Part shown: positions 1 to 58,581 of the stretch, piece by piece
How positions within the stretch are numbered: the first letter of the stretch is position 1
Layout of the letters: each line of letters begins with the position of its first letter
The notes under the pieces: generated by a model
The model's database searches: none
Told to the model about the DNA's origin: nothing
Seen by the model: the letters and a program-made list of their open reading frames with translations, nothing else
Translations under genes and position numbers: made by a program
Assembly: GCA_965153355.1 (NCBI GenBank)
Contig: OZ231126.1
Location: 9,176,001-9,240,000, forward strand
Length of the DNA: 64,000 nt
Direction: 5' to 3'
DNA from: Flaccisagitta enflata
Lineage: Eukaryota

Positions 1-10596
<10,596 letters not shown>

Positions 10597-13796: not shown

Positions 13797-16700
13797 TTCT
13801 TTCTTCTTTTTTTCTCGTCCTGCCTTCTGTTTTTCTTTCTTTCCTCTTTCTTTTTCTCTCATTCTGCCTTCTGTGTTTCTTTCTCTTGTCCTGCTTTCTG
13901 TCTTTCTTCTTGTCTTCCAATGCTTATCATTCTATTTTAGTCGCGGACCTCAATGGAAGTAAGCCTTAATACCTATCTCCCTTCCTGCCTCATCATCGCC
14001 GTATTTCCAGACTTGTGACAATTATTTCAGGTGACGATCGATGGCAGCCGTTGGCGATCGCAGTCACGTGGACGGCCAAAGTTTCTGTGGGTGACTTGGA
14101 TTTATTTTTATTTTTAGTCGCGTGCTACGCGACTCTACACCTCGCTCTATCCGTCCGTCCGTCCGTCCGTCCGTCCGTCCGTCCGTCACACTTTACTTTT
14201 TTTCTTGGTTTTCGTGTTCTTTGGCCTCACTGCTGCCCAAATGATCAAGTGACCTCAAATACGGCCCCTGCCCCTCCGCAAACTGATGATATTGCTCCAT
14301 TTGTTAGGATCACTGTCTCTGGTGAGGCATAACCGGTATTCGACTGAATGTGTTCACTCCTACCATTTCTTATCAATTCAGGAACTGATCGGTCTCATCT
14401 GCCATCACTACATTCAGTCCGGTCGTGAGCCGAGTTTGAATAACTCCACTCCCGCCGGATATTCGCTTCACATGGCAGACGACGATGGCCTAGTCGAGGA
14501 AGACTTCGCACCCCTCGACCCTAGGTGAAAAGTGATAACATCATTTTACAGTAGAGCAATCGTAATATGTGTTCGCTTTTAGAACCTTATGAAGATATTT
14601 TATCCAGCTACCATTATCCGGATATTCTACCTAGTAGTTCTTTAATTTTGTATGTCTGTATAATCCGTATAATGATTGGGGGGGTCGGTAACAACGAACT
14701 TTGGAAATGCCAGTCGGACATATGACCAATGTGTGCACAAAAACGATATATAAACACATGTGAACGGAAAAAGGAGTCACACCATATCGTTTACAGTCGT
14801 GCCACACCCCTTATTTACATTGTAATGAATAGGGAGAAGGAAGAGGAAGAGGAAGCTCCTATACTTTACTATGGGAAAGGTAGGGTTGGCACGACTATAA
14901 ATGATAAAATCTCATGAACTTTTCCTTCTAGTTCTCAGGTTGTTTTGTGATTGCGAATGGTCTGGTGATATGTCCGATTGGCATTTCCAAAGTAGGTTGA
15001 TACCGACCCCCCCAATAATGATTTCCGCGAATTAAGGAGAGACTTTTGGCACTGCAGAACAAAGAAGAATAAGAAGCGCCATCGAAATAAATTGGTAGCC
15101 AGCATTAAGATCCTCATTTGCATATTGCAGTTTTACTTTAATAGCTCCCATATAATGACAAAAAAATAAAATTAATCAATTTGAAGTATGAAATCACATA
15201 GAAGAACAAGTTGGTGAGGTTCAGAAAAAAAGAACACTTTTGCATTTACAAAACTTATCAACACCATATCGTATATATTTTAGCCGCCCCTAAATGGAAT
15301 TGATATGTAAGGCAGGTAAAAAAAATTATTAGATGTGGTGGAATTGTCGGAGCTAGCTTTGTTGGAGCCGGCTTTGCTGCGAAAGAAATCTATCGGCTCT
15401 CCGGCTTATACGAGAATCACGTTGTTGCCTGTGTTGATGGTATTTTTCAATGTTTGATAATTCGTTCGCGGCCCGCTGTAAGGGAGGGGCTGATCTTTCC
15501 TACCATTGAGGTCAATCTCGGCAGCGTACGGGGAAAACCTCTGCCCCCGCCCCCTCCCCCCCCTCCACCGATAAGAACCAAGAATCTGGGAAGTACTTAC
15601 GTATAAATTGACTTGTATTGTCTTTTCGCAGAGAGCCGATTTCCAAGTTTGACTTTCCAAATTTGGCTTTAGTTGAACATGAACTGCCGCCCGAAGCCGA
15701 GGAGGAACCTCCCGCTATTATAACCGGTGAATCTTTAAGTGTCAAAAGATAGATGGTGCTTGTTTTTCGATATACAATTATACAGACATTCACTCATTCA
15801 TACACCTATACTTTCATTCACTCATTCTCTGGTTCACTTATCATTCATTCTTTGATTCATTCATTCATTCATTGATTTAAACACTCATCCATATCATTCA
15901 TTCACCTACTCTTTTATTCATTCGCGCTCTTCCATTCGTTACTGTTTCATTCATCCCATAACTGCCATTTCTCTCCATTATGTGTAGTTAATATACCTCA
16001 ACGTGGATGGGGGAAGATACAAGTGGAGAACGAGGGTCTCCTCATGCGAGACATCCTCAAAATCGTGCTGGAAAAGCGCCGCATCAGGGAAGGCCGCGGC
16101 CGCGAATACGGTTTAGCACGGGAAGACGACCCAGGTAGGTCAACTGGATAATAAATTCAATTTTGTCAGGCTAGGCCGCTATGGCGAATACGTTTTACCA
16201 CATGGAGATTACACAGGTGAATCAACTGAGTAAGTTTCATCACATCGACTGGATAAAAGATAAGGGGGCAGACCAGTCCAGATTATGGTTTAGCACGAAG
16301 AAGATCCATGTACAGGGCCGGGCTACAGGCTGACGGCTATGAGATTTTCTTATTAAGTCGCTAATGTCTCAACAAAACAGTCATTGTCTGCATTCGCATT
16401 CGCTCATATTCAATTGACCAATCTACGCAGAGCGGTTGTTGGATCTGGACCGTCCTTTGCGAGAGATGGGGACTCTGGAGTTTCGTTTGAAGCGATTGAA
16501 TTGTTACGATCCCGAGGCAGACTCCAACAACGCAGACGTCGACTTCAAGGCTCAAGATCATCAAGAACTGCTCTTCCCTTTCCCACTCCTCGGAGACGAC
16601 AGAAGATATAAAGTCGACATTGTCAAAAGAATTAAAGTAAGAGATTCTAGAATCGTGTGACTAGATGTGCCGATTCTGTGTGGCATCACTGGCATGTTGT

Positions 16701-24163: not shown

Positions 24164-46713
<22,550 letters not shown>

Positions 46714-47297
46714 TCGGAAATCACGCTTCCATTTGGAAGGATTCATTGACTCTTTCATTCCGTTACTGCTTCCCTCTTTGATTCAAATTTGTTTTTATGA
46801 GCAACATGTTCAGTCGTTACACCCATTTATTGCCATACCGAACATTTTAGCATTTTGGCCTTGCCAACCAGTAAGGGGCAGGGGGGAGGGGGGATCGTAT
46901 AGGGTAGCTGAGCGTTAGAAAATAATTGTGGCATCATTTTGAAACTAATAGCGCGATTTAACTATTTAAATGTAATGCTCGAATGATTTGAGTCTTTAAA
47001 ATCAATTTTCATCGAATGTTTATCTTGTTGATCTTGATATGAAGATTTCTCGACCTTAAAACGTTTATAATGCCCCAAGGATACCGTCCACTATGAATAT
47101 TTCTGTATATTGAGAAAAAGTGTGAAACTGTGTCATCGCGACTTCGTGTCGTCCAATGACAGCATTTTTGCTCGACTTTGATTTTCGTTGACGCTTGAGA
47201 GCGGATAAATTTGCAAAAACGCGTGATACCCCAAATAACGGAATCGGAAGAATGCTCAGACTTTCAAAACTCAAATATCTTTTCACAACAGTTCGAG

Positions 47298-50200
47298 ATG
47301 GTTCGAAATTATCGGCACGTTCGCCCTACCAAAGCCAAGAGAAAAGGATGTTCCGACGCTGCTAAAAAGAGATGGGCGATATTTCGAAGAAAGAAGCAGG
47401 CCAAAGTTGAGAATGTATCAGATGGAGTTGACAAGGGAGAGGGGGATGGAAATGTAAGTCTAGACGAAGTTGTGGAAGGAGAAGAGGGAAGCAGAGGAGC
47501 TTGCATATCCATTAGACCCATTTTTAAGTGCGTCCTCGCACTTGTATAAGAGGTCATATCTGTCGGACGTTTGAAATGCGCAAAACGGCTCATTCTGACA
47601 TATTTCTTCATTCCTATCACCTTTCATGCCTTACCACATGCATTTTCATTGATTCCTTCATTCATTTATTCATTTATTCATTCATTCATTCATTCATTCA
47701 TTCATTCATTCATTCATCAAAAACGTTCATTCACAAATTCTTAATCAAGCGAGGCGCACTTATTGGCCTTCACTTGGCCTTGCTTCCCGAGACTTTTGTT
47801 GCTTGAAAACATATGACAGTGCCATATTGTTGCAAAGACCATCTTCTTTCATTACATGTTGTAAAAAGAAAAAAAAGATTATAATTCTTGGCTCGTTTCT
47901 CGAACGGTGAAGGATAGGAAAATGAAAATAAAGCTGTAATAAAAAAAAAAAAAATCAAAATGAAAATTTTTAAAATCTGATTTCAGATTCAGATTCTTCT
48001 TGAAAAAGTATGGATGAATAGTGCTCTTCTTTTTAGTTGCGGACACTCAACTCTATAAGAAGCTTTGTCCGTCTGTTGGTCTGACCGTCCGTTTGTCCGT
48101 AATGATAGAGTCAAAAGGTGGGAATCCGCGCATTTCCGCCCCTGCCCACCCGTCCGCAACTGGTGGCCGTGTACTCGGCCTTGTTTTGATAATTCCACAA
48201 GAAGCCTTTCATATATTAAAAACAACTAACAAAAAGTGGATGTTCATTTGAAAGTTGATATGTCTCTCCGCAGGACTTTAAATTGGATGCTGAGCTGATG
48301 TTTGACCCTATCTATATCGGAAAGGAAAAAGAAAGGTATGCATTGTAATGGGATTTCGCAACAATATTTTAAATTGCATGCATTTTGTTTACTTCTCAGT
48401 TTGTCCCAGTTGCTATTTGCGATTTGGTTATTTTGGCCCTAACTTCAGGTGGGAGGCAGCAAAGTCGAGGTTATCCTGCTCTTCGGATGAAGATCTAGCC
48501 AAATTCCTCCTTGATCATCATTTTGAAGTCCCGCTGACGCAGCGAGATGGATGCGTGGAAGATGGAGCAAGCAGTGGGAATGATAGTGGCAGTACCAACA
48601 AAGATGGTGGGGAAGACGGATTTGCCGATGAAACGGAGAATAACCGCAACCTTCAAAGGGAAGACGTGAAGGTCGAGGGAGCGACGCGAGAAGCTGATAC
48701 CAAGGCACTACTAGAGACGTTTGAGATTTCCCTGCGTGAGGGTTTAGGGGAGTCAACGTCCTCATATTCTAACACGAACGTCAAGAAAGAAAACGGCGAC
48801 AGACTTCCGCCTAAGAACAAAATAACCAAATTGGGGAGCCCGCTCACCGAGTCAACAAACCTCGGTGGTATGGAGGATGAGGAGGAGTGTGTCGACGACA
48901 ATATGGACACTGTAATCCAGACTCCGTTATTGGAGGAGAAAGCAAGTGACGACATGAAATGTAACAAGAAGAGAAAAAGAGGTCGACCGAGGAAAGTGGT
49001 TGCACCGAGGGAGGAGGAAGAAGAAGAGCGGGAATTGGTCGACACTGGTATAGACTCAAACACAGTTTTACAACAACAGACTTGTCATAGAAGAACTGGT
49101 GCTCAACCCACGGTCAAGACTCCTTCACTGAAGGGGCATTTAAAGGAGAGTGGGACTGACGATGTGAAATGTAACATGAAGAGAAAACGAGGTCGACCTT
49201 GGAAAGTGGTTGTACCGAGGGAGGAGAAGGAAGAGGAGGAGGAGCAGCCACGTCATCGGCCAAGAGCCTGCAAGAAAGCATGTGCTGTAGACGTTGATTC
49301 CGTTCAAGATATGGACGATATGCATGAGGATGAAGAGTATGGGGGTGTTTCTAGTTAAAGAGGATCGCGTTTTGAAAGGGCCACTCGGTCGCTCGCTACG
49401 TTCATTCTCTCACTCCGCTCACTCGCTCCGCAGCGCTACGCTCGCTTTGCTCGCTCGCTCCGTTCACGGGCTCGCTCACTCACATCGCTCACTCCATCGT
49501 GGGACAGTTGAAATTCTTGAATATGTGTTCACACTGTTATCGCGTTTCACGGGAACAAACGCGTTTTTCATCTGAACTAGAAACACGCCCTATGACCCGG
49601 AATTCATTCCACCGCTCAATGAGGATGGATTGGTGAGCGAGAAGAAAGCAGCTATAGCTGGATTTCATTAGGCCTGATTAAATGACTGGTTTAATGAGCT
49701 GTTTTTGAAACTCAAATACCAAATATAATTTTTAAGGAAACATCTTTTTACTTTGTTAGGCCCTTGCAAGAAAGAATCTTTTGGATCATTTTGACGTTTT
49801 GTCCGAGACTGAGGTGGTTTGTCGTCGTTGCAAATGGCATTTATCCACCAACAAGACGATGGCTCTCTCTGGTCACTTAAAAAGTAGTCATGGTGAGCTA
49901 TTTCTGTCTCAATTCAGTGGGTTCAATCCAAGACTTTAACCTCGAATATTGACGACAAAAAACTACACCGTTGATCATGTTTAAGAGGGCTCAAACATGG
50001 AGTCTTACCTGAATTTGCAACCGCTTGGCTTAAAATCAAAGGAAATTTAGTTTTTTTTTTGTTGCAATTATTACAATCTCTGCATTGTACAGGCATTGTT
50101 CGAAATGGATCCATTTATGAACACTTGTTTTGCGATCATCCAAAATGTGATTCTTCGATCAAATTCGAGTCTTTTCAAGATTACCGAATTCACAATGAAA

Positions 50201-53200
50201 AGGTCCACAACGATGGTAAATATTTTGAGCTGGATCCAATTTGAATTTCAACTGCGCCTATATTGCTAATCAATTGTTTGTCACGTGCACGTGACTCTAG
50301 TAACACGATCTGTCGGTTGGTTGAATGGTCTGTGACGCTTAGCTTTTTCCATGTTTATGGACAGTTTTTGTATTGCTGCCCCTGTCCAAATGTTTATTAA
50401 GATCATTTTGCTGCCTCTGCCCACCAGCAAGCGATTTGGGTAGCTGTGTATCCAGCCTTCTTTATTTCTTTCTTGCAGAAAAAAACAATAAGAAAGGAAA
50501 CAGGGAAGCAATTTATGCCGGTGAAAATGTGGTAAAGAGTCGAAATCGGCATGCGGAAAGCCACCCCCCTCAAAAGGATGAAGCCACATTATTATGCAAT
50601 ATTTGCGGCGTATCTTATCACAGCCGCAGCTCATTATGGTGCCACATGCAAAATCATCGCGAAAAAGTTCTTTGCACTCACCCGGGTACGATTTACATGT
50701 TTCAACTCCTTAGTCAGGAAATTGTTAAATTCGAAACGTGTTTTTTTCGCCCTCTGAAAATACGGTAATAATCGTAACTCTGGCCAAAAAAAAGCGAACT
50801 ACTTGTTTGTCAGTGTTTCACATCCAAGCCATGAGAAAAGTAGCAAAATCCATGAACATTTTGAAGGTCTGCGAAAGATCTTGGAAGAGACCTTGCTGGA
50901 TGTCCTAGCTCCACCCGTTTAAAAATGACATTCGGATGAAGACAGGTGGTCAAGAATTTGGAAATTCAATACGCGATTTTCATAGATTAAACACATTGAT
51001 TTAGAAATTTGTTCTTTGCGCCATTTTAAAGAAAGTTTGAAGCTCTTTAGTTTGCTCATGGATAACAAGTAGCTAAGAAAATCCTGAGCTGCATCATTGA
51101 CAAGTGACGCGGGGTCACAGTATCATTGTGGACGGGTGGGCAGGGGTATCCAACCCCCATCCACACCCCAAACCACCCCCAACAATCCAACATACACAGA
51201 AAGTATCAAATAGTCGCAAAAGCGTTAGATGGTCAGCGGCACCCGTTGCCCTTATGTGAGTGTTTGTGGGTGTGAGATAGAGGCGCAGCGGCCCCAAAGG
51301 TGCCGATGACCTATGCTGTTTTTATTTGAACCTTAGGCTGGGATTTGAGCCTCGAGGCTGGGATTTGAGCTTAGAGGCTGGGATTTGAGCCTTGAGGCTA
51401 GGATTTGGGGCTGGAGACTATGATTTGAGCCTTGGGGCTGGGAGTTGAGCTTCAAGGCTGGGATTTGAGTTTTGAGGCATTGGTTTGAACCTCGAGGCTG
51501 GGATTTGAGCCTCAAGGCTGGGATTTGAGCCCTGAGGCTGGGATTTGAGCCTCAAGGCTGGGATTCCAGCTTCAAAGCTAGGAATTGAGCCTCGAGGCTA
51601 GGATTTGGGTCTTGAAACTAGGATCTGGGCCTGGAGGGGGTGGACGGAGAAAAAGAAGGAGAAGGAGAAATTTCCCCTTTGTGAGAAAGCATAGGTCCTC
51701 GGCCCCTTCAGGGCCGCTGCCCAAAAGGTTTGTTTCCCCACTCAATCACCCTGGACCGATGGACCAACGGACAGACCAACGGACGGACAAAGCCTCTTAT
51801 AGCGTGTCCACAAGTGACTCCAACTGAAAACGGAAAATCTTTGGAACAAGGCCAAGTTATGGCCAATAAGTGCGCCTCGCTTGATTAAGAATTTGTGAAT
51901 GAACGTTTTGAATGAATGAATAAATAAATAATAGAATGAAAATGAGTGTGGAAAGGCATGAGAGGTGATAGGAATGAAGAAAGACGACAGAATTGGCCGT
52001 TTTGAGCATTTTTAACGTTTGCGTTACCGACAGACCAACCAACAGACAGACCGACCAACGGACACGACCTCTTATAGAAGTGCGAGGACGCACTTAAAAA
52101 TTGAAATTATCACTTTTTTCAATCAGGGATTTTTAGTCGCGCGCACGCGACTATTACCCGCTCTGTCCGTCTGTCTGTCTGTTGGTCCGATACGCTTAGC
52201 TCTTTTTAGTCATTTTACGCCATTTTAAGTCATTTTAAGTCATTTTTAAGACAATTTACATTTTGTCTTTTAGTCTTTAGGTCTTTTAATCTTTTAGTCT
52301 TATGGTCTTAACAACAGCACGCGACTGTAAGGTGTTGGCCTTGTTTTCTTCAAACCTTTGCCATTTTTAAACGAATGAAGCTGCAATGACCAGCAACCAG
52401 GAACATCACATTTTGAAGAATTTTCGCAGAGCTTTCAAACGGATTCATGTATTCATGGATTTTCTGTGGTTCAGGCCCACACTAACTAACAAAACGAGCT
52501 GACCGCTTTCTTTCTTTGCCATAGTTTCATCAGAGACCGATAGGAAAATGATCAATGATGGGATCAATTGATTGATGTTTGACTTGGTAATGCCGATGCC
52601 ACGTTTTGCTACAAGGTTGCGGTCAACTAGTTCCAGCGGCAAGATATTCACGACACATGGGACATCATTTGCCTGGAATTTGTCCTTATGCTGATTGCAA
52701 AATGGAGTTCAAGTCGCAAAACTCGATCAAATCTCACGTCAGAACGTATGAAAGATAACACGATACAAGTGTGTGATAGTTGTGACCTTACCTCACACGA
52801 GGTCGAGGCTTATTTATTGATTTGTCTCTTGAATTTCCTTTTCTCAGGGTTCACAAACTGAATGCAAAGAAATCATATCAGTGCAGCTATTGTCCGAAAT
52901 TATTCCTGGTTAGTATTGATAAAGGTCGGTCAGTTGGTCCAATTATAGGTCACTCTTTCAGTCCGTCTTTTAGACAGTCTATGTGTCCTCTGTCAGTTGT
53001 CCTTTGTCACTCCATTGGTCTGTAGAATAGATGGCTTTGGCACCTCTTGGGAGTCATGTGAGGAAGTTGGCCGCAGGCTGGAGGTGAGCTGTTTTGAATT
53101 ATCCCCCCCCATGCTTTCTATTCCTTTCGATCATTTATGCAGTGGATTTATTTATTGAACCGACATGAGAAAGAAGTTCATGGAGAATCTCGCGACTTCA

Positions 53201-55863
53201 GTTGTCCTGAACCAGATTGTAACCAATCTTTCAAGAGTAAAAAAAATCTCACTCTGCACAGAAATACACACAAGACTATCAAGCCTTTCCAATGTATGTG
53301 GTGCGACTTTACTGGTAGGTTTATCTGAAATCCAGGTTGGTTTATTCCTTGTTCATGTTTAAAAGTTTTCTGAGTATGGTTTTGGCCAGTCTGTTTTTGT
53401 GGCGGTATGAAAATGCGCATTTGAGATGCCATGCGTGTGTCTGAAGTAGGGATGTGGAAGCGGTCAATTTTAGTGCCGCTTCCACCGCTTCCGCTTCCGC
53501 TTCCATTTTGTAGTACAAATACTAGTAGCTATCCCATCCTCCAAAACGGAAGCGGTCAATCACTTCCACATCCCTAGTCTGAAGGTTGGAGTATGGAGGG
53601 GGGTTATGTGTCCCTGCCCATCCATCCGCGACAAATTTATAATCCTACATTATTAGCTCCTTCACACATGGTATTTCTCAACTGTGGCCATCCACAGGCT
53701 ATTCTTGTTTGGCATGCATCAGTTGGGTGCTTCACATAGCAAAAGTTGGTTATTTCTTTTCACCCTCTTTATCTAATGCGGAGTGGTTAATTTTAGGACT
53801 CTTACCAGTTTTCTTTTATCAAAAATTGTTCATCTTTGGTTTTTTGTCCTCGACGATCAGTTTACGTCGAGGACTATAACATAGCCTTGATCGTGTAGTA
53901 AGCCGTTTGTTGTCGTCGTCGTGTCAACCCTTAAAAACTTGAGAACCACAACTCAGATGCTGATGAAACTTGGTCAGTGTTATTTTTAGAGCATTACTAA
54001 CCTGTGTACCAACTTTCAACAACATTCATAAATATTTAATACCCTTTGCCTATTATTTTTGTAGTAACATTAATTCCTGGACTTGTGCAATTTACATAGG
54101 GGAAGGGTAGTAAAGGTTCACCAATGTTGTTCAAACTTGTTGTGAAGGTTTATTGCATCAATTAAAGCTCCCCCGCAAGATTTCAGATAATTCTGAGTAT
54201 TGGTTTAGAAGATATAAGGCTATTTTGCTAGTAATATTAATTCCTGGACTTGTGCAATTTACATAGGGGAATGGTAGTAAAGGTTCACCAATGTTGTTCA
54301 AACTTCTTGTGAAGGTTCATTGCATCAATTTAAGCTCCCCTGCAAGATTTCAGTCAATTCTGAGTATTGGTTAAGAAAATATTAGGGTATTTATGATGTA
54401 TCTAGTAACATTATTTCTTGGACTTAAGAATTTTTTTTTTGAAAAAAATGTTTTGTTTTTTTTTTTTTTTTTTGAAATTTATTTTTTTTTTTTTTTGAAA
54501 TTTTTTTTTTTTTTTTGACTTTAAGGTATGCAATTGGTAGCCGGGTCAGACTGAGTAGCCGGGTCAGACTGAGTAGCCGTCAGACTGAGTAAGGTCTTGA
54601 ATTTAAAAAAATTTTTTTTAAATTTTTTTTAAATTTTTTTTTTTAATTTTTTTTTGAAAAAAAATAATTTTTTTTTAAAAATTTTTTTTGAAAATTTTCT
54701 TTGAAAAAAAGGTTTTTTTTTGAAAAAGCTTTTGAAAAAAATTTTTGAAAAATTTTTCTTTTGGACTTTTGTATGCAATTGGTAGCCGGGTCAGACTGAG
54801 TAGGGTCAGACTGAGTAGCCGGGTCAGACTGAGTAGCCGGGTCAGACTGAGTAGCCGGGTCAGACTGAGTAGCCGGGTCAGACTGAGTAGCCGGGTCAGA
54901 CTGAGTAGCCGGGTCAGACTGAGTAGCCGGGTCAGACTGAGTAGCCGGGTCAGACTGAGTAGCCGGGTCAGACTGAGTAGCCGGGTCAGACTGAGTAGCC
55001 GGGTCAGACTGAGTAGCCGGGTCAGACTGAGTAGCCGGGTCAGACTGAGTAGCCGGGTCAGACTGAGTAGCCGGGTCAGACTGAGTAGCCGGGTCAGACT
55101 GAGTAGCCGGGTCAGACTGAGTAGCCGGGTCAGACTGAGTAGCCGGGTCAGACTGAGTAGCCGGGTCAGACACCAAATAGACTACAGTCGAGGACTGTTG
55201 TTTTTAAGCTTTTTAGAAAATTGTTTTTGAGGACCTAATTTGCATAATGCAGTGGGATAAAACAATATGCTGACATTCTTTGAATTAGCTTTTATCAATT
55301 TCTATTCTTCAATGAATTGTTGATCTGCCTCTTCATACGCTCTTTCATAGCTAATGATCTGATATTTTTATTTATTATTACAAATATTATGATTTCTTGA
55401 GATAAATCATTGCCCTTTTATTACCGAAATTACACAGGATTTTACTGAATTCTGGGAAATCTGCGGAAACTTTAAGGCCAAAACAAAAACAGAAGATAAA
55501 GGAATTTTGAAAAAAGGAAAATGGTCATCTTTATGATTTTTGTTCCTCCATATTCCCCCAGTAGGGTGAGAGGATACTCCCAACTTTTGCTATATGAAGC
55601 ACCCAAATGCATCAGTAATTTGATCAGGTTAAAACTTGTTTGATGCCCCAGGTGTTCAGTATAACAACATCCGATCGCATGCTTTAACCTCGCACAAATT
55701 GGAATTTCAAAAAGCTCGAGAGAAGAGGGAGAAGTATTGGCGTCGTACACCTGGCGTTGATGTTGGAGAATTGCCTTTTGCTGGCGTAGACAATGAACAA
55801 TTGCCATCTGCTGGTGTAGACAGTGCAGAAATGCCATCAGCTGGTGTAGACAATGCACAATAG
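47298..55863 (+). CDS. ZF-C: paralogous AT-hook/BED-like/C2H2 protein; the reading frame is continuous only if the MITE-derived intron 49337-49580 is spliced
   Basis: Exons 47298-47453, 48274-48335, 48449-49336, 49581-49632, 49760-49892, 50093-50215, 50479-50685, 52616-52745, 52848-52908, 53143-53314, 55652-55863. All downstream exons are open and phase-matched to ZF-B. Confidence 0.75.
49341..49590. mobile_element. 250-bp TIR MITE (PIF/Harbinger-like, 3-bp TSD) inside a coding exon
   Basis: TIRs GGGGGTGTTTCTAGTT / AACTAGAAACACGCCC match 15/16; TAT duplicated at 49338-49340 and 49591-49593; (CGCT)-rich core. Confidence 0.88.
53447..53576. mobile_element. 130-bp hAT MITE
   Basis: TIRs TAGGGATGTGGAAG / CTTCCACATCCCTA; 8-bp TSD GTCTGAAG. 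Confidence 0.9.
53845..55200 (+). mobile_element. HINE-like element, family 3, carrying an 18-bp satellite (GAGTAGCCGGGTCAGACT)n
   Basis: 5' hairpin GTCCTCGACG...CGTCGAGGAC; 3' end ACAGTCGAGGACTGT; about 21 near-perfect 18-mers at 54781-55170. Confidence 0.7.
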
Positions 55864-58581
55864 CAAATTACTGGTGTAGACAATAAAACTGAATTTTCAC
55901 TACCATTACATGCATAAGCAATGATTAAGCGATATGATTAAGATTTGATTTGGGTCCATGGCTTTTTTAAGCATTACATCCTTAGTGACCAACATGTGGC
56001 TTCATCCATTCCTTGATTGTTGTCGATATTTGGGCATAATGAATAATTCTCAGCACGATTTTGTTTTACTTTCCAAATCCTCCGCTAGAGCGAAGCTTTA
56101 ATTTGAATAGTTTCGGGCCGTGATACATAAAACTCAGCCAACCCTTAGCCCTAAAGCTAACCCTGTCCCTAACCTTAAAACTATCCCCAACCCTAAACCC
56201 ACCCCTAACCCTAATTCAAAAAGCTGCTTAAGAAGTCTTAAAAACAAAAGATCACAGATGATTGCACAAATGTTCCGATATTTGTATATTGATTACCTCT
56301 CATGCATGAAAATTGGCCACCTCCACTCTCCAGTCTCTTTCTGTGAAAGCTTGATTTGATGTTAGCTTAAACTGCAAATCTGTTACAGGGAGGCCATGGT
56401 TTTCGTTCATTCAAGTTGCCATTTTTCTTTGTAGGTGCAGCACCCTGTTCAAGAGCTTTTTGAGAGTTGGTTGAAAAGATTTTAGAGTTAAGTCGTCTAA
56501 TTTGTTTATGTAAGAGGCCTTTTACTTATATTAGGGAACTAAGCAGCGGCAAACCAGCAAGAAATGGGGTGAAAAAAAAGATGTCGTATTTTTTTAAACA
56601 CCTTTGCTATACTAAATATGAATAAATACGATAGGTATTTGATCAATTTTCAATCAGAATTACTTGGAAACACATTATTGTCTGATCCTGTGATTTTTTT
56701 TACGATGAAATTTAATAAAATTGAAAGAGAAAGGAGAAGGGCCTTAAAAATTACCTCCTGAGGTAAGATTGAGGCCAACTCGCTAAAACACGCCAAACCA
56801 CCTTGTAGATTAGCTTACGGGGAATTCATATCTGTTTTCGGAAATTATTTTCTATGTGGCGAAGGATGGCGAGATACAAGACTGTGAGCCTATGCCAAGC
56901 ACAATCATGAGAACCATAAATACCATCATGAAATTGACACATAGAATAGACGCAAACGAGCTACACGTTGTGTACCAATGAAAACGTCTTTTTAGATGCG
57001 TCTTCGCATCACTATAAGAGGGTCGGTCCGTCCATCCGTCGGTCCGTCGGTCCGTCCATTATGCCTCTTCTAGTATCACGCAGATGACGCATCTAGTTGT
57101 CCGCTTGGGCTTGGTTAGATGCATCCTCGTATCACTATTATAGGCTGTGTCCATTGGTTGATTGGTCAGTTGGTTGGTTGGTCGGTAATGCATTCAATAA
57201 TAAGGCCGGATACACGGCTACCCCAGTCGCGTGCGGGTGGGCAGGGGCCGTAATTGAGGTCACCAGATCATTTGGGCAGGAGCAGTGAAGCCAAAATCCC
57301 AGAAACCCAAAAAAAGTAAAGTGTGACGGATGGATGGACCAATGGACCGACGGACCGACAGACCAGACAGACTGACGGACGGACCGACAAAGCGGGGTGT
57401 AGAGTCGCGTAGCACGCGACTAAAAACATCAAAATAATGCATTTCTTCAACAGTTACGTGGTTCTACGCAGTAGAAGTAGCATACATTCAGTGACTCATT
57501 CATTCAATAATTCATTTATTCATTCATAAATGACAGTAATTCATAGAACAAGGCCAACACCTTTCAGTCGCGTGCGGTTGTTAAGACCATAAGACCAAAA
57601 GACTGAACACCAAAGGACCAAAACATTAAAAGACTAAATGCAAGCTGTCTTGAAATAACTTAAAATGATCTAAATTGATGTAAAACGAAGAAAAAAAACT
57701 AAGCGTGATGGACAGACGGACAGAGGGATGGATGGACAGATGGACGGACCGACCAACCCGACCAACCGACCAACCGACGGACAGAGCTAGTCATAGAGTC
57801 GCGTGCATGCGACATAAAAACATGCATTCATAAAAAAACATTCATTCATTCAAAGAGGACGCCTCGTTCTGTTTTAAAATGAAATTAGTTCATACATGTC
57901 AGGAGCTTTCAAATTTCAAAATAGTAGTCTGGTGGAGCTAGTTCTAACTGACGTAGCCCTTGAGCTAGCTCCTTACAAAGATCGTTGCCCACAGTCATTG
58001 AGAGAAAAAGTTCTAGCAGTTGTGCAAAGAGATGTTTATACACGCGAATGAAGAAATGAATGTTAATAAACACTTTAAACAGGCCTTAATTAAGTGATTC
58101 TGTTGACCGTGCACGCCGGGCACGCACACGCCACTCACAATTATGTGTAAATGAAGTTATTTCCTCAATCTTACACGTTTGTTTACTAAAGATGAATAAA
58201 TGAAACGATTCTCATGACAACAAAGCAACGGCTTCTTTTTAGTCGCGGACACGCCGTGTCGGTTGGTAGGTCGGTAGGATGGTACGTCCGTGACAATTTT
58301 CATTGAATTCCGAGCGGTTTATGGTTTTTTCCATTACCGCCCCTGCCCAACCGTCCGCGACTGGATTGCCGTGTATCCGGCCTTGTTTTTTAGTCGGCTG
58401 CTACGGTTGGTTGTTCCGTCACATTCTACCTGGTTTTTTTATTTGCGGTCTTAGGTCTCACTGTTTCTCCCTCAATGCTTCAATGACCTAAAATGCGACC
58501 CCTGTCCACAACTGGGATAGCCTTGTATCCGGCCTTCTTGTTATGTTCAACTCCAACAAAGTTGTGAGTGCGGGTCATGGC

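Follow-up and report, generated by a model that had tools for sequence, protein, structure and literature searches.

A polymorphic miniature transposable element in a coding exon of a Flaccisagitta enflata zinc-finger gene: disrupted allele or introner-like intron?

Whether a transposable element that enters a coding exon breaks the host gene, or is spliced out of it as a newborn intron, is the question raised by a stretch of 64,000 nucleotides of Flaccisagitta enflata (GenBank assembly GCA_965153355.1, contig OZ231126.1, positions 9,176,001 to 9,240,000 of the forward strand), which is analysed here at its full length as the window. In this repeat-rich eukaryotic DNA (42% G+C), exon 2 of ZF-C, a C2H2 zinc-finger gene that belongs to a tandem series of diverged paralogs (at least four units in the window), is interrupted by a miniature inverted-repeat transposable element (MITE). 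An earlier note on the sequence had interpreted the element as an introner-like intron gain, an interpretation that is partly supported by the present analysis. The insertion segregates with a precisely empty allele, and the reading favoured here, to which we give about an even chance, is that the filled allele is mainly disrupted and is tolerated in a redundant gene array. That the element is a nascent intron in a natural population of a marine animal, with the intron-less ancestral allele still segregating, is considered unlikely.

The element and its presence/absence polymorphism

The insertion and its boundaries can be observed directly. As the earlier note had described, a 250-bp element with terminal inverted repeats (TIRs) and a target-site duplication (TSD) of TAT interrupts ZF-C, lying at 49341-49590 with TAT on both sides (Table 1). 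The two TIR arms (16 nucleotides each) are complementary at 15 of 16 positions and form the sole inverted pair reported within 49200-49750, while the interior is rich in GCTCGCTCACTC-like repeats and is without coding capacity of its own. Among representative proteins, the translated element matches only other copies of itself, and Pfam recognises no transposase in the 150 listed copies, which span the element body. A TIR search of the window (allowing up to three mismatches) yields only the two arms and one three-mismatch site at 39132, where chance alone would give 0.63 matches, and there is therefore no second copy of the element in the window; likewise, self-comparison of 44000-54500 by blastn gave no further match to it.

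The comparison with paralogs places the insertion in a site that is otherwise continuous. ZF-B, earlier noted as uninterrupted here, indeed reads ...DEEYDPEYIPRLDEDESVRE straight through the insertion site, and a third paralog has DYDPEFV. Furthermore, the blastn alignment of ZF-C with ZF-B breaks off exactly at 49339/25674.

Both states of the site were recovered from natural samples. A search of a 5.8-billion-protein collection with exon 2 as query returned three proteins among 1443 candidates, and a second search with the last 90 residues of exon 2, covering shorter proteins only, returned one protein among 7 candidates. From the first search, P0001 (344 residues; five member sequences on three contigs) is a ZF-C allele that ends in ...HEDEEYGGVSS and so carries the element at the same site; it differs from the ZF-C of the window by 22 substitutions and 22 gap positions. 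The other two, P0002 and P0003, resemble ZF-B and run through the site without a break. The protein from the second search, P0005 (84 residues), is the precise empty site (EEYDPEF) and reads ...DMHEDEEYDPEFIPPLNEDGLVSEKKAAIAGFH. In tblastn, 56 of its first 59 residues agree with 49164-49340 and all 26 of residues 59-84 with 49591-49668, the single Tyr mapping onto both TAT copies. The last eleven residues of P0005 are the translation of intron 2, and its contig is thus unspliced genomic DNA of the same locus without the element. The empty-site allele, for which the earlier note had proposed a search, is thereby in hand; it bears out the element boundaries and a net insertion of 253 nucleotides, and at the DNA level it can be recognised as GAGTATGAC without the element. 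On the recovered sequences, the insertion is a presence/absence polymorphism, with filled and precisely empty alleles in natural populations.

As a separate observation, P0002 looks chimeric when compared against window positions 48438-49340 and 24773-25723, joining a ZF-C-type N-terminal half to a ZF-B-type C-terminal end and lacking the second KRKRGRP repeat of ZF-C. Such a structure hints at exchange among the tandem paralogs within the population, by unequal crossing-over or gene conversion.

The MITE family and its fit to introners

The open internal frame of the element (49342-49572, 77 residues) was translated and scored against 1.84 billion representative proteins, which gave 254 matches at E ≤ 1e-3, 72 at E ≤ 1e-10 and one at E ≤ 1e-30. 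These matches are spurious open reading frames that run through further copies of the element. When 21 copies are aligned, the similarity begins at G(A/V)FLV and stops at TRNTP, which correspond to the element ends, and the flanks are unrelated to each other. The element is accordingly placed, by sequence similarity, as one copy of an abundant MITE family, and it shows the hallmarks of this class, namely TIRs, a TSD checked against the empty site, a small size without transposase and many copies in different contexts.

The element may be a Tourist-like MITE of the PIF/Harbinger superfamily. It resembles such elements in its size (~250 bp), its 3-nucleotide duplication, its TIRs beginning GGG..GTTT and the TNA-like flanks of the database copies. 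It differs from them in that the duplication in the window is TAT and not TWA, and in that a direct repeat is compatible with the flanks of only one of 13 database copies. The TNA-like character is seen in the flanks (family-level counts here and below rest on the 150 listed copies, P0006-P0155): of the 44 copies readable on the left, 38 have the codon NAG ahead of the element, and of the 71 readable on the right, 38 continue with L, S or a stop. For the 13 copies in which both flanks are visible, the reverse complement is compatible in six (the shuffle mean is 3.0, and 2.4% of shuffles reach 6). The database flanks are hence at odds with the direct TAT of the window copy, which leaves the target duplication of the family unsettled.

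The earlier note had further proposed that this family may generate introns, and here the family itself offers little encouragement. Introners should border coding exons, yet a Pfam domain was recognised in the flank of only 1 of the 150 listed copies (Aa_trans, E 9e-08; one more fell below the cut-off), which points away from an introner, although the test is weak in that the flanks are short and compared at the protein level only. The sole copy beside recognisable coding sequence, P0015, runs from an Aa_trans exon into the left end of the element (...FVIIESQ/GAFLVKDD) and would be a second candidate for insertion in an exon or at an intron boundary; a protein atlas comparison of its Aa_trans flank gave no usable taxon. 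The exon G on which the candidate 5' splice site of the window depends could be present in at most 12 of the 44 copies with a visible left boundary (S 10, R 1, C 1), as judged from whether the amino acid at the second position ahead of the element can be encoded by NGT. Since this is not above the one in four expected by chance, a donor at the boundary is not a property of the family. On the right side, TRNTP (ACT AG/A AAC ACG CCC in the window, the slash marking the proposed splice junction) is kept in 52 of the 71 copies with a visible right end. This conserved end fits a 3' splice site borne by the element, and equally fits a sequence that is kept simply as part of the TIR. For splice sites at the same offsets in other copies, the outcome is mixed, a candidate site being shared by most visible ends on the 3' side and no family feature being seen on the 5' side. 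Overall, the family-level checks do not look introner-like as far as flanks and ends of the listed copies can tell.

Related elements were also sought elsewhere. A JGI metagenome scan for two TIR cores at the right spacing returned one locus (L001), in which a different TIR element of 240 bp lies at 134-375 of a metagenome contig, its ends having about 15 contiguous bases (GGTGTTTCTAGTTAA) of the TIR in the window. With an unrelated interior and only these ~15 TIR bases in common, it was rejected as a member of the same family; it may belong to a distant family with a related transposase, or the likeness may be due to chance. Among viral contigs, 20 pattern matches for the element family were obtained and none was confirmed.

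Splice-site candidates and the fate of the filled allele

Unspliced, the host frame runs ...HEDEEYGGVSS into a TAA only five codons into the element (49356-49358), exactly as the earlier note had stated, and all zinc-finger motifs lie beyond this stop. The way out that the note had proposed is a splice from a donor at the left end of the element to an acceptor in its right TIR. When every GT from 49250 onward was combined with every AG up to 49639, a single GT-AG pair restored the frame without a stop, namely 49337/49580, which defines an intron of 244 nucleotides. Joining 49336 to 49581 gives ...HEDEENTPYDPEF, which is in frame and 9 nucleotides longer than the empty allele, such that GAG becomes GAA (still Glu) and Asn-Thr-Pro is inserted. 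The gene model, which is open over 598 codons without the element, would then encode 601 residues with no stops. The right-TIR acceptor, the in-frame join and the three added residues of the note are consequently sound as a prediction. However, with ~5 usable GTs and two usable AGs, roughly a third of all pairs fall in frame by chance, and so an in-frame pair by itself is unsurprising.

An introner-like intron birth, in which the filled allele is transcribed, the element is efficiently removed as this 244-nucleotide GT-AG intron and a functional zinc-finger protein is made, draws its appeal from the uniqueness of this pair and from the fully open spliced model. The extra 9 nucleotides would moreover be structural to the element (splicing would retain the 10 nucleotides that follow CTAG and remove one G of the exon), and any copy with a G before a T-initial target would keep the frame. 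We nevertheless regard it as improbable, in part on the quality of the splice sites, which can be compared directly with those of the same gene. Donors were scored by matches to MAG/GTRAGT over 9 positions and acceptors by pyrimidines in 17. The candidate donor AGA/GTATGG reaches 5 of 9, below all eight real ZF-C donors (6-7 of 9). The note had derived this donor from the TSD and the start of the TIR, which is correct for TAT and GG; the G, on the other hand, is the third base of the exon codon GAG, and the donor exists only because this base happened to precede the target. The candidate acceptor is of ordinary quality (11 of 17 pyrimidines, against 10-15 in the seven real acceptors), yet the internal acceptor ending at 49433 (13 of 17, CAG) is better and competes with it. 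Pairing the donor at 49337 with 49433 would remove 97 nucleotides and lead to a premature stop. In addition, none of the seven established ZF-C introns has terminal inverted repeats longer than 5 nucleotides.

The same figures bear on heterogeneous cryptic splicing, in which several GT/AG combinations would be used, a fraction of the products being in frame and the rest ending in premature stops, and the allele would be a leaky hypomorph and not a null. Exonic insertions of maize Ds/dSpm and of Caenorhabditis elegans Tc1 are often spliced out inexactly by way of cryptic sites close to the ends of the element. The locus resembles these cases in that a DNA transposon sits in coding sequence and that GT and AG close to either end could take out most of it; their splicing has been experimentally demonstrated, whereas here it is a possibility on paper. 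Similarly weak GTs at 49337, 49345 and 49499 (each 5 of 9), together with the plausible acceptors at 49433 and 49580, speak for such a mixture. In the predicted RNA fold, the long TIR stem takes in and pairs across both candidate splice sites, which counts against intron birth and could also hinder recognition of both ends in heterogeneous splicing. The whole-element fold is not beyond that of shuffled sequences (z = -0.90; equal or better folding in 40 of 200 shuffles), the TIR stem being its one notable part. We hold a mixture of this kind to be an unlikely outcome as well, on a par with intron birth.

Among 3443 longer candidates, no transcript-derived protein matched, which is weak evidence against intron birth. 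A run search listed 13 sequencing runs, including one polyA RNA run of the organism (X12). Of the sampled words, 33-84% were present in marine metagenomes and in the organism's DNA runs; the shares in the three metatranscriptomes X9-X11 were 0.05-0.09, which is no evidence of expression. The absence of a transcript-derived open reading frame from that search would also agree with ZF-C having been silent or a pseudogene already at the time of insertion, in which case the element would be without consequence either way. The array is fast-evolving (its paralogs share 41-67% protein identity), and the alleles differ by many substitutions and indels. Against such decay stand the eight open modelled exons, the canonical GT-AG ends of all seven introns, the intact C2H2 motifs and the preservation of frame by the allele differences; this account is therefore judged to be very unlikely, the least probable of those considered.

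Openness of the exons downstream of the insertion had been offered in the earlier note in favour of splicing. It had counted seven such exons, and the observation itself is borne out (the six modelled exons downstream of exon 2 are all open, and a further homologous exon lies near 55651). Nevertheless, the insertion is still segregating, which leaves no time for decay, and the open exons accordingly carry no weight on whether the element is spliced.

The favoured reading, that of a mainly disrupted allele, would run as follows. A non-autonomous TIR DNA transposon of a large MITE family inserted into coding exon 2 of ZF-C and duplicated the Tyr codon TAT. As the stop inside the element precedes every zinc finger, the filled allele would mainly yield a truncated product or be subject to nonsense-mediated decay. 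This disruption would be tolerated because the zinc-finger family is redundant and fast-evolving, and cryptic splicing at the in-frame GT-AG pair would be no more than minor or partial.

Several points weigh against a mainly disrupted allele and should be set beside it. Two of the eight real ZF-C donors (48336 and 52746) begin with GTATG, which places GTATGG within the usage of this spliceosome, and the candidate intron (244 nucleotides) lies inside the short-intron range of the gene (102-263 nucleotides). The right end of the family is a conserved pyrimidine-rich stretch followed by CTAG. Furthermore, the filled allele is found in the reference and on three metagenome contigs, the empty allele on one contig only; a filled allele that appears this common is not expected if it were strongly deleterious, and would suit intron birth. 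Exon 2 is open in both filled haplotypes, and the length differences between them keep the reading frame. Lastly, the fate of the filled transcript is something that we infer.

The gene model underlying these comparisons comprises eight exons and was built from paralog homology and the GT-AG rule (Table 1). Its introns measure 113, 127, 200, 263, 1930, 102 and 234 nucleotides, and a GT directly follows exon 8. Exon 2 also contains an internal duplication of 95 nucleotides (48934-49028 and 49144-49238, 84% identical), which encodes a KRKRGRP.KVV.PREEE block that is present in one copy only in ZF-B. Comparison of exon 2 with a protein atlas gave a best score of 0.79, which is under the level worth quoting. 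In the surroundings of the gene, a dispersed repeat with the recurrent translation ...LY.PLC.SV..SVGPSV...PND.V...APAHPHAT.VAVYPAL... occurs at 5613-5885, 13970-14329 and 48018-48248 on the forward strand and at 57141-57419 on the reverse strand, one of these copies being just upstream of ZF-C exon 1. A foldback-like inverted repeat (44210-44843; arms of 295 nucleotides at 44210-44504 and 44549-44843, 80% complementary and 44 nucleotides apart) sits upstream of a partial zinc-finger gene at 46004-47546.

Table 1. Coordinates of the element, its candidate splice sites and the host gene in the window (a slash marks a splice junction)
Feature	Position	Strand	Remark
MITE body	49341..49590	+	250 bp; ends are the family boundaries in 21 aligned database copies
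Left terminal inverted repeat, GGGGGTGTTTCTAGTT	49341..49356	+	16 nt, 94% complementary to right arm
Right terminal inverted repeat, AACTAGAAACACGCCC	49575..49590	+	contains candidate acceptor AG 49579-49580
Left target copy TAT	49338..49340	+	Tyr codon of host exon; single Y of P0005 aligns here too
Right target copy TAT	49591..49593	+	single Y of P0005 aligns here too
In-frame stop TAA made by insertion	49356..49358	+	codon 316 of model; upstream of all zinc-finger motifs
Candidate 5' splice site AGA/GTATGG	49337..49342	+	G, exon base; TAT, TSD; GG, TIR start
Candidate 3' splice site GCGTTTTTCATCTGAACTAG/	49561..49580	+	11/17 pyrimidines
Competing internal acceptor TCCGCTCACTCGCTCCGCAG/	49414..49433	+	13/17 pyrimidines, CAG
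Uninterrupted homologous site of ZF-B, GAG TAC GAC	25670..25678	+	paralog comparison
ZF-C exon 1	48298..48335	+	putative ATG at 48298; homology to ZF-B 24564-24668
ZF-C exon 2, host exon interrupted by MITE	48449..49632	+	
ZF-C exon 3	49760..49892	+	
ZF-C exon 4	50093..50215	+	
ZF-C exon 5	50479..50685	+	
ZF-C exon 6	52616..52745	+	weak Pfam C2H2 matches
ZF-C exon 7	52848..52908	+	
ZF-C exon 8, C2H2 finger	53143..53314	+	zf-C2H2 E 5.4e-06, 27 bits against cut-off 25.2

Known introners and the meaning of the locus

For protists and algae, intron gain through introners is well documented, but in animals it is rare. Gozashti et al. (2022; PMC9860276) report introners in 175 of 3,325 genomes, with only two animal groups among them, and describe families in which the 3' splice site lies in the element and the TSD provides the 5' site, as well as introners of Aureococcus that add 12 nucleotides to the mRNA. 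According to a 2024 review (PMC11282704), the introners of Micromonas are MITE-like, with 3-nucleotide TSDs and TIRs, one splice site coming from the element and the other being made in the duplication. Both precedents would lend support to intron birth at this locus. The validated introner hosts named by Gozashti et al. (2025; PMC12130899) include a sea urchin and a tunicate.

The window element shares with introners of the Micromonas, Symbiodinium and Aureococcus types a short TIR structure, a 3-nucleotide duplication and a CTAG inside the terminal repeat. A possible 5' site assembled from flank, TSD and element start is a further likeness, as is a short in-frame remnant (a predicted +9 nucleotides here versus +12 in Aureococcus). 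It is unlike them in that the donor is weak and needs a chance exon G, splicing is only a candidate, recognisable coding flanks are all but missing from the listed family copies (one in 150), and the other ZF-C introns are not element-derived. In the tunicate Fritillaria borealis, as the same review has it (PMC11282704), MITE insertions in genes are likewise neutralised at the RNA level, giving rise to MITE-derived non-canonical introns. That system, however, involves non-GT-AG ends and an altered spliceosome, whereas all seven modelled introns of ZF-C are GT-AG, and there is thus no hint of a Fritillaria-type system here.

The proposed splice architecture is therefore already known, the one unusual feature of this case being the recovery of both alleles. 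Going by the sequences compared, the new contributions include the presence/absence polymorphism of the insertion and the membership of the element in a large MITE family. A polymorphic exon insertion of which both alleles come from natural samples provides a clean natural experiment, in which either splicing neutralises a fresh MITE or the gene is broken. If the element is not spliced, the locus would be a loss-of-function insertion of an ordinary kind, segregating within a redundant array of zinc-finger genes. If intron birth is true, the +9-nucleotide structure of the element end would preserve the reading frame in each event of this kind, irrespective of the codon phase at which the element enters.

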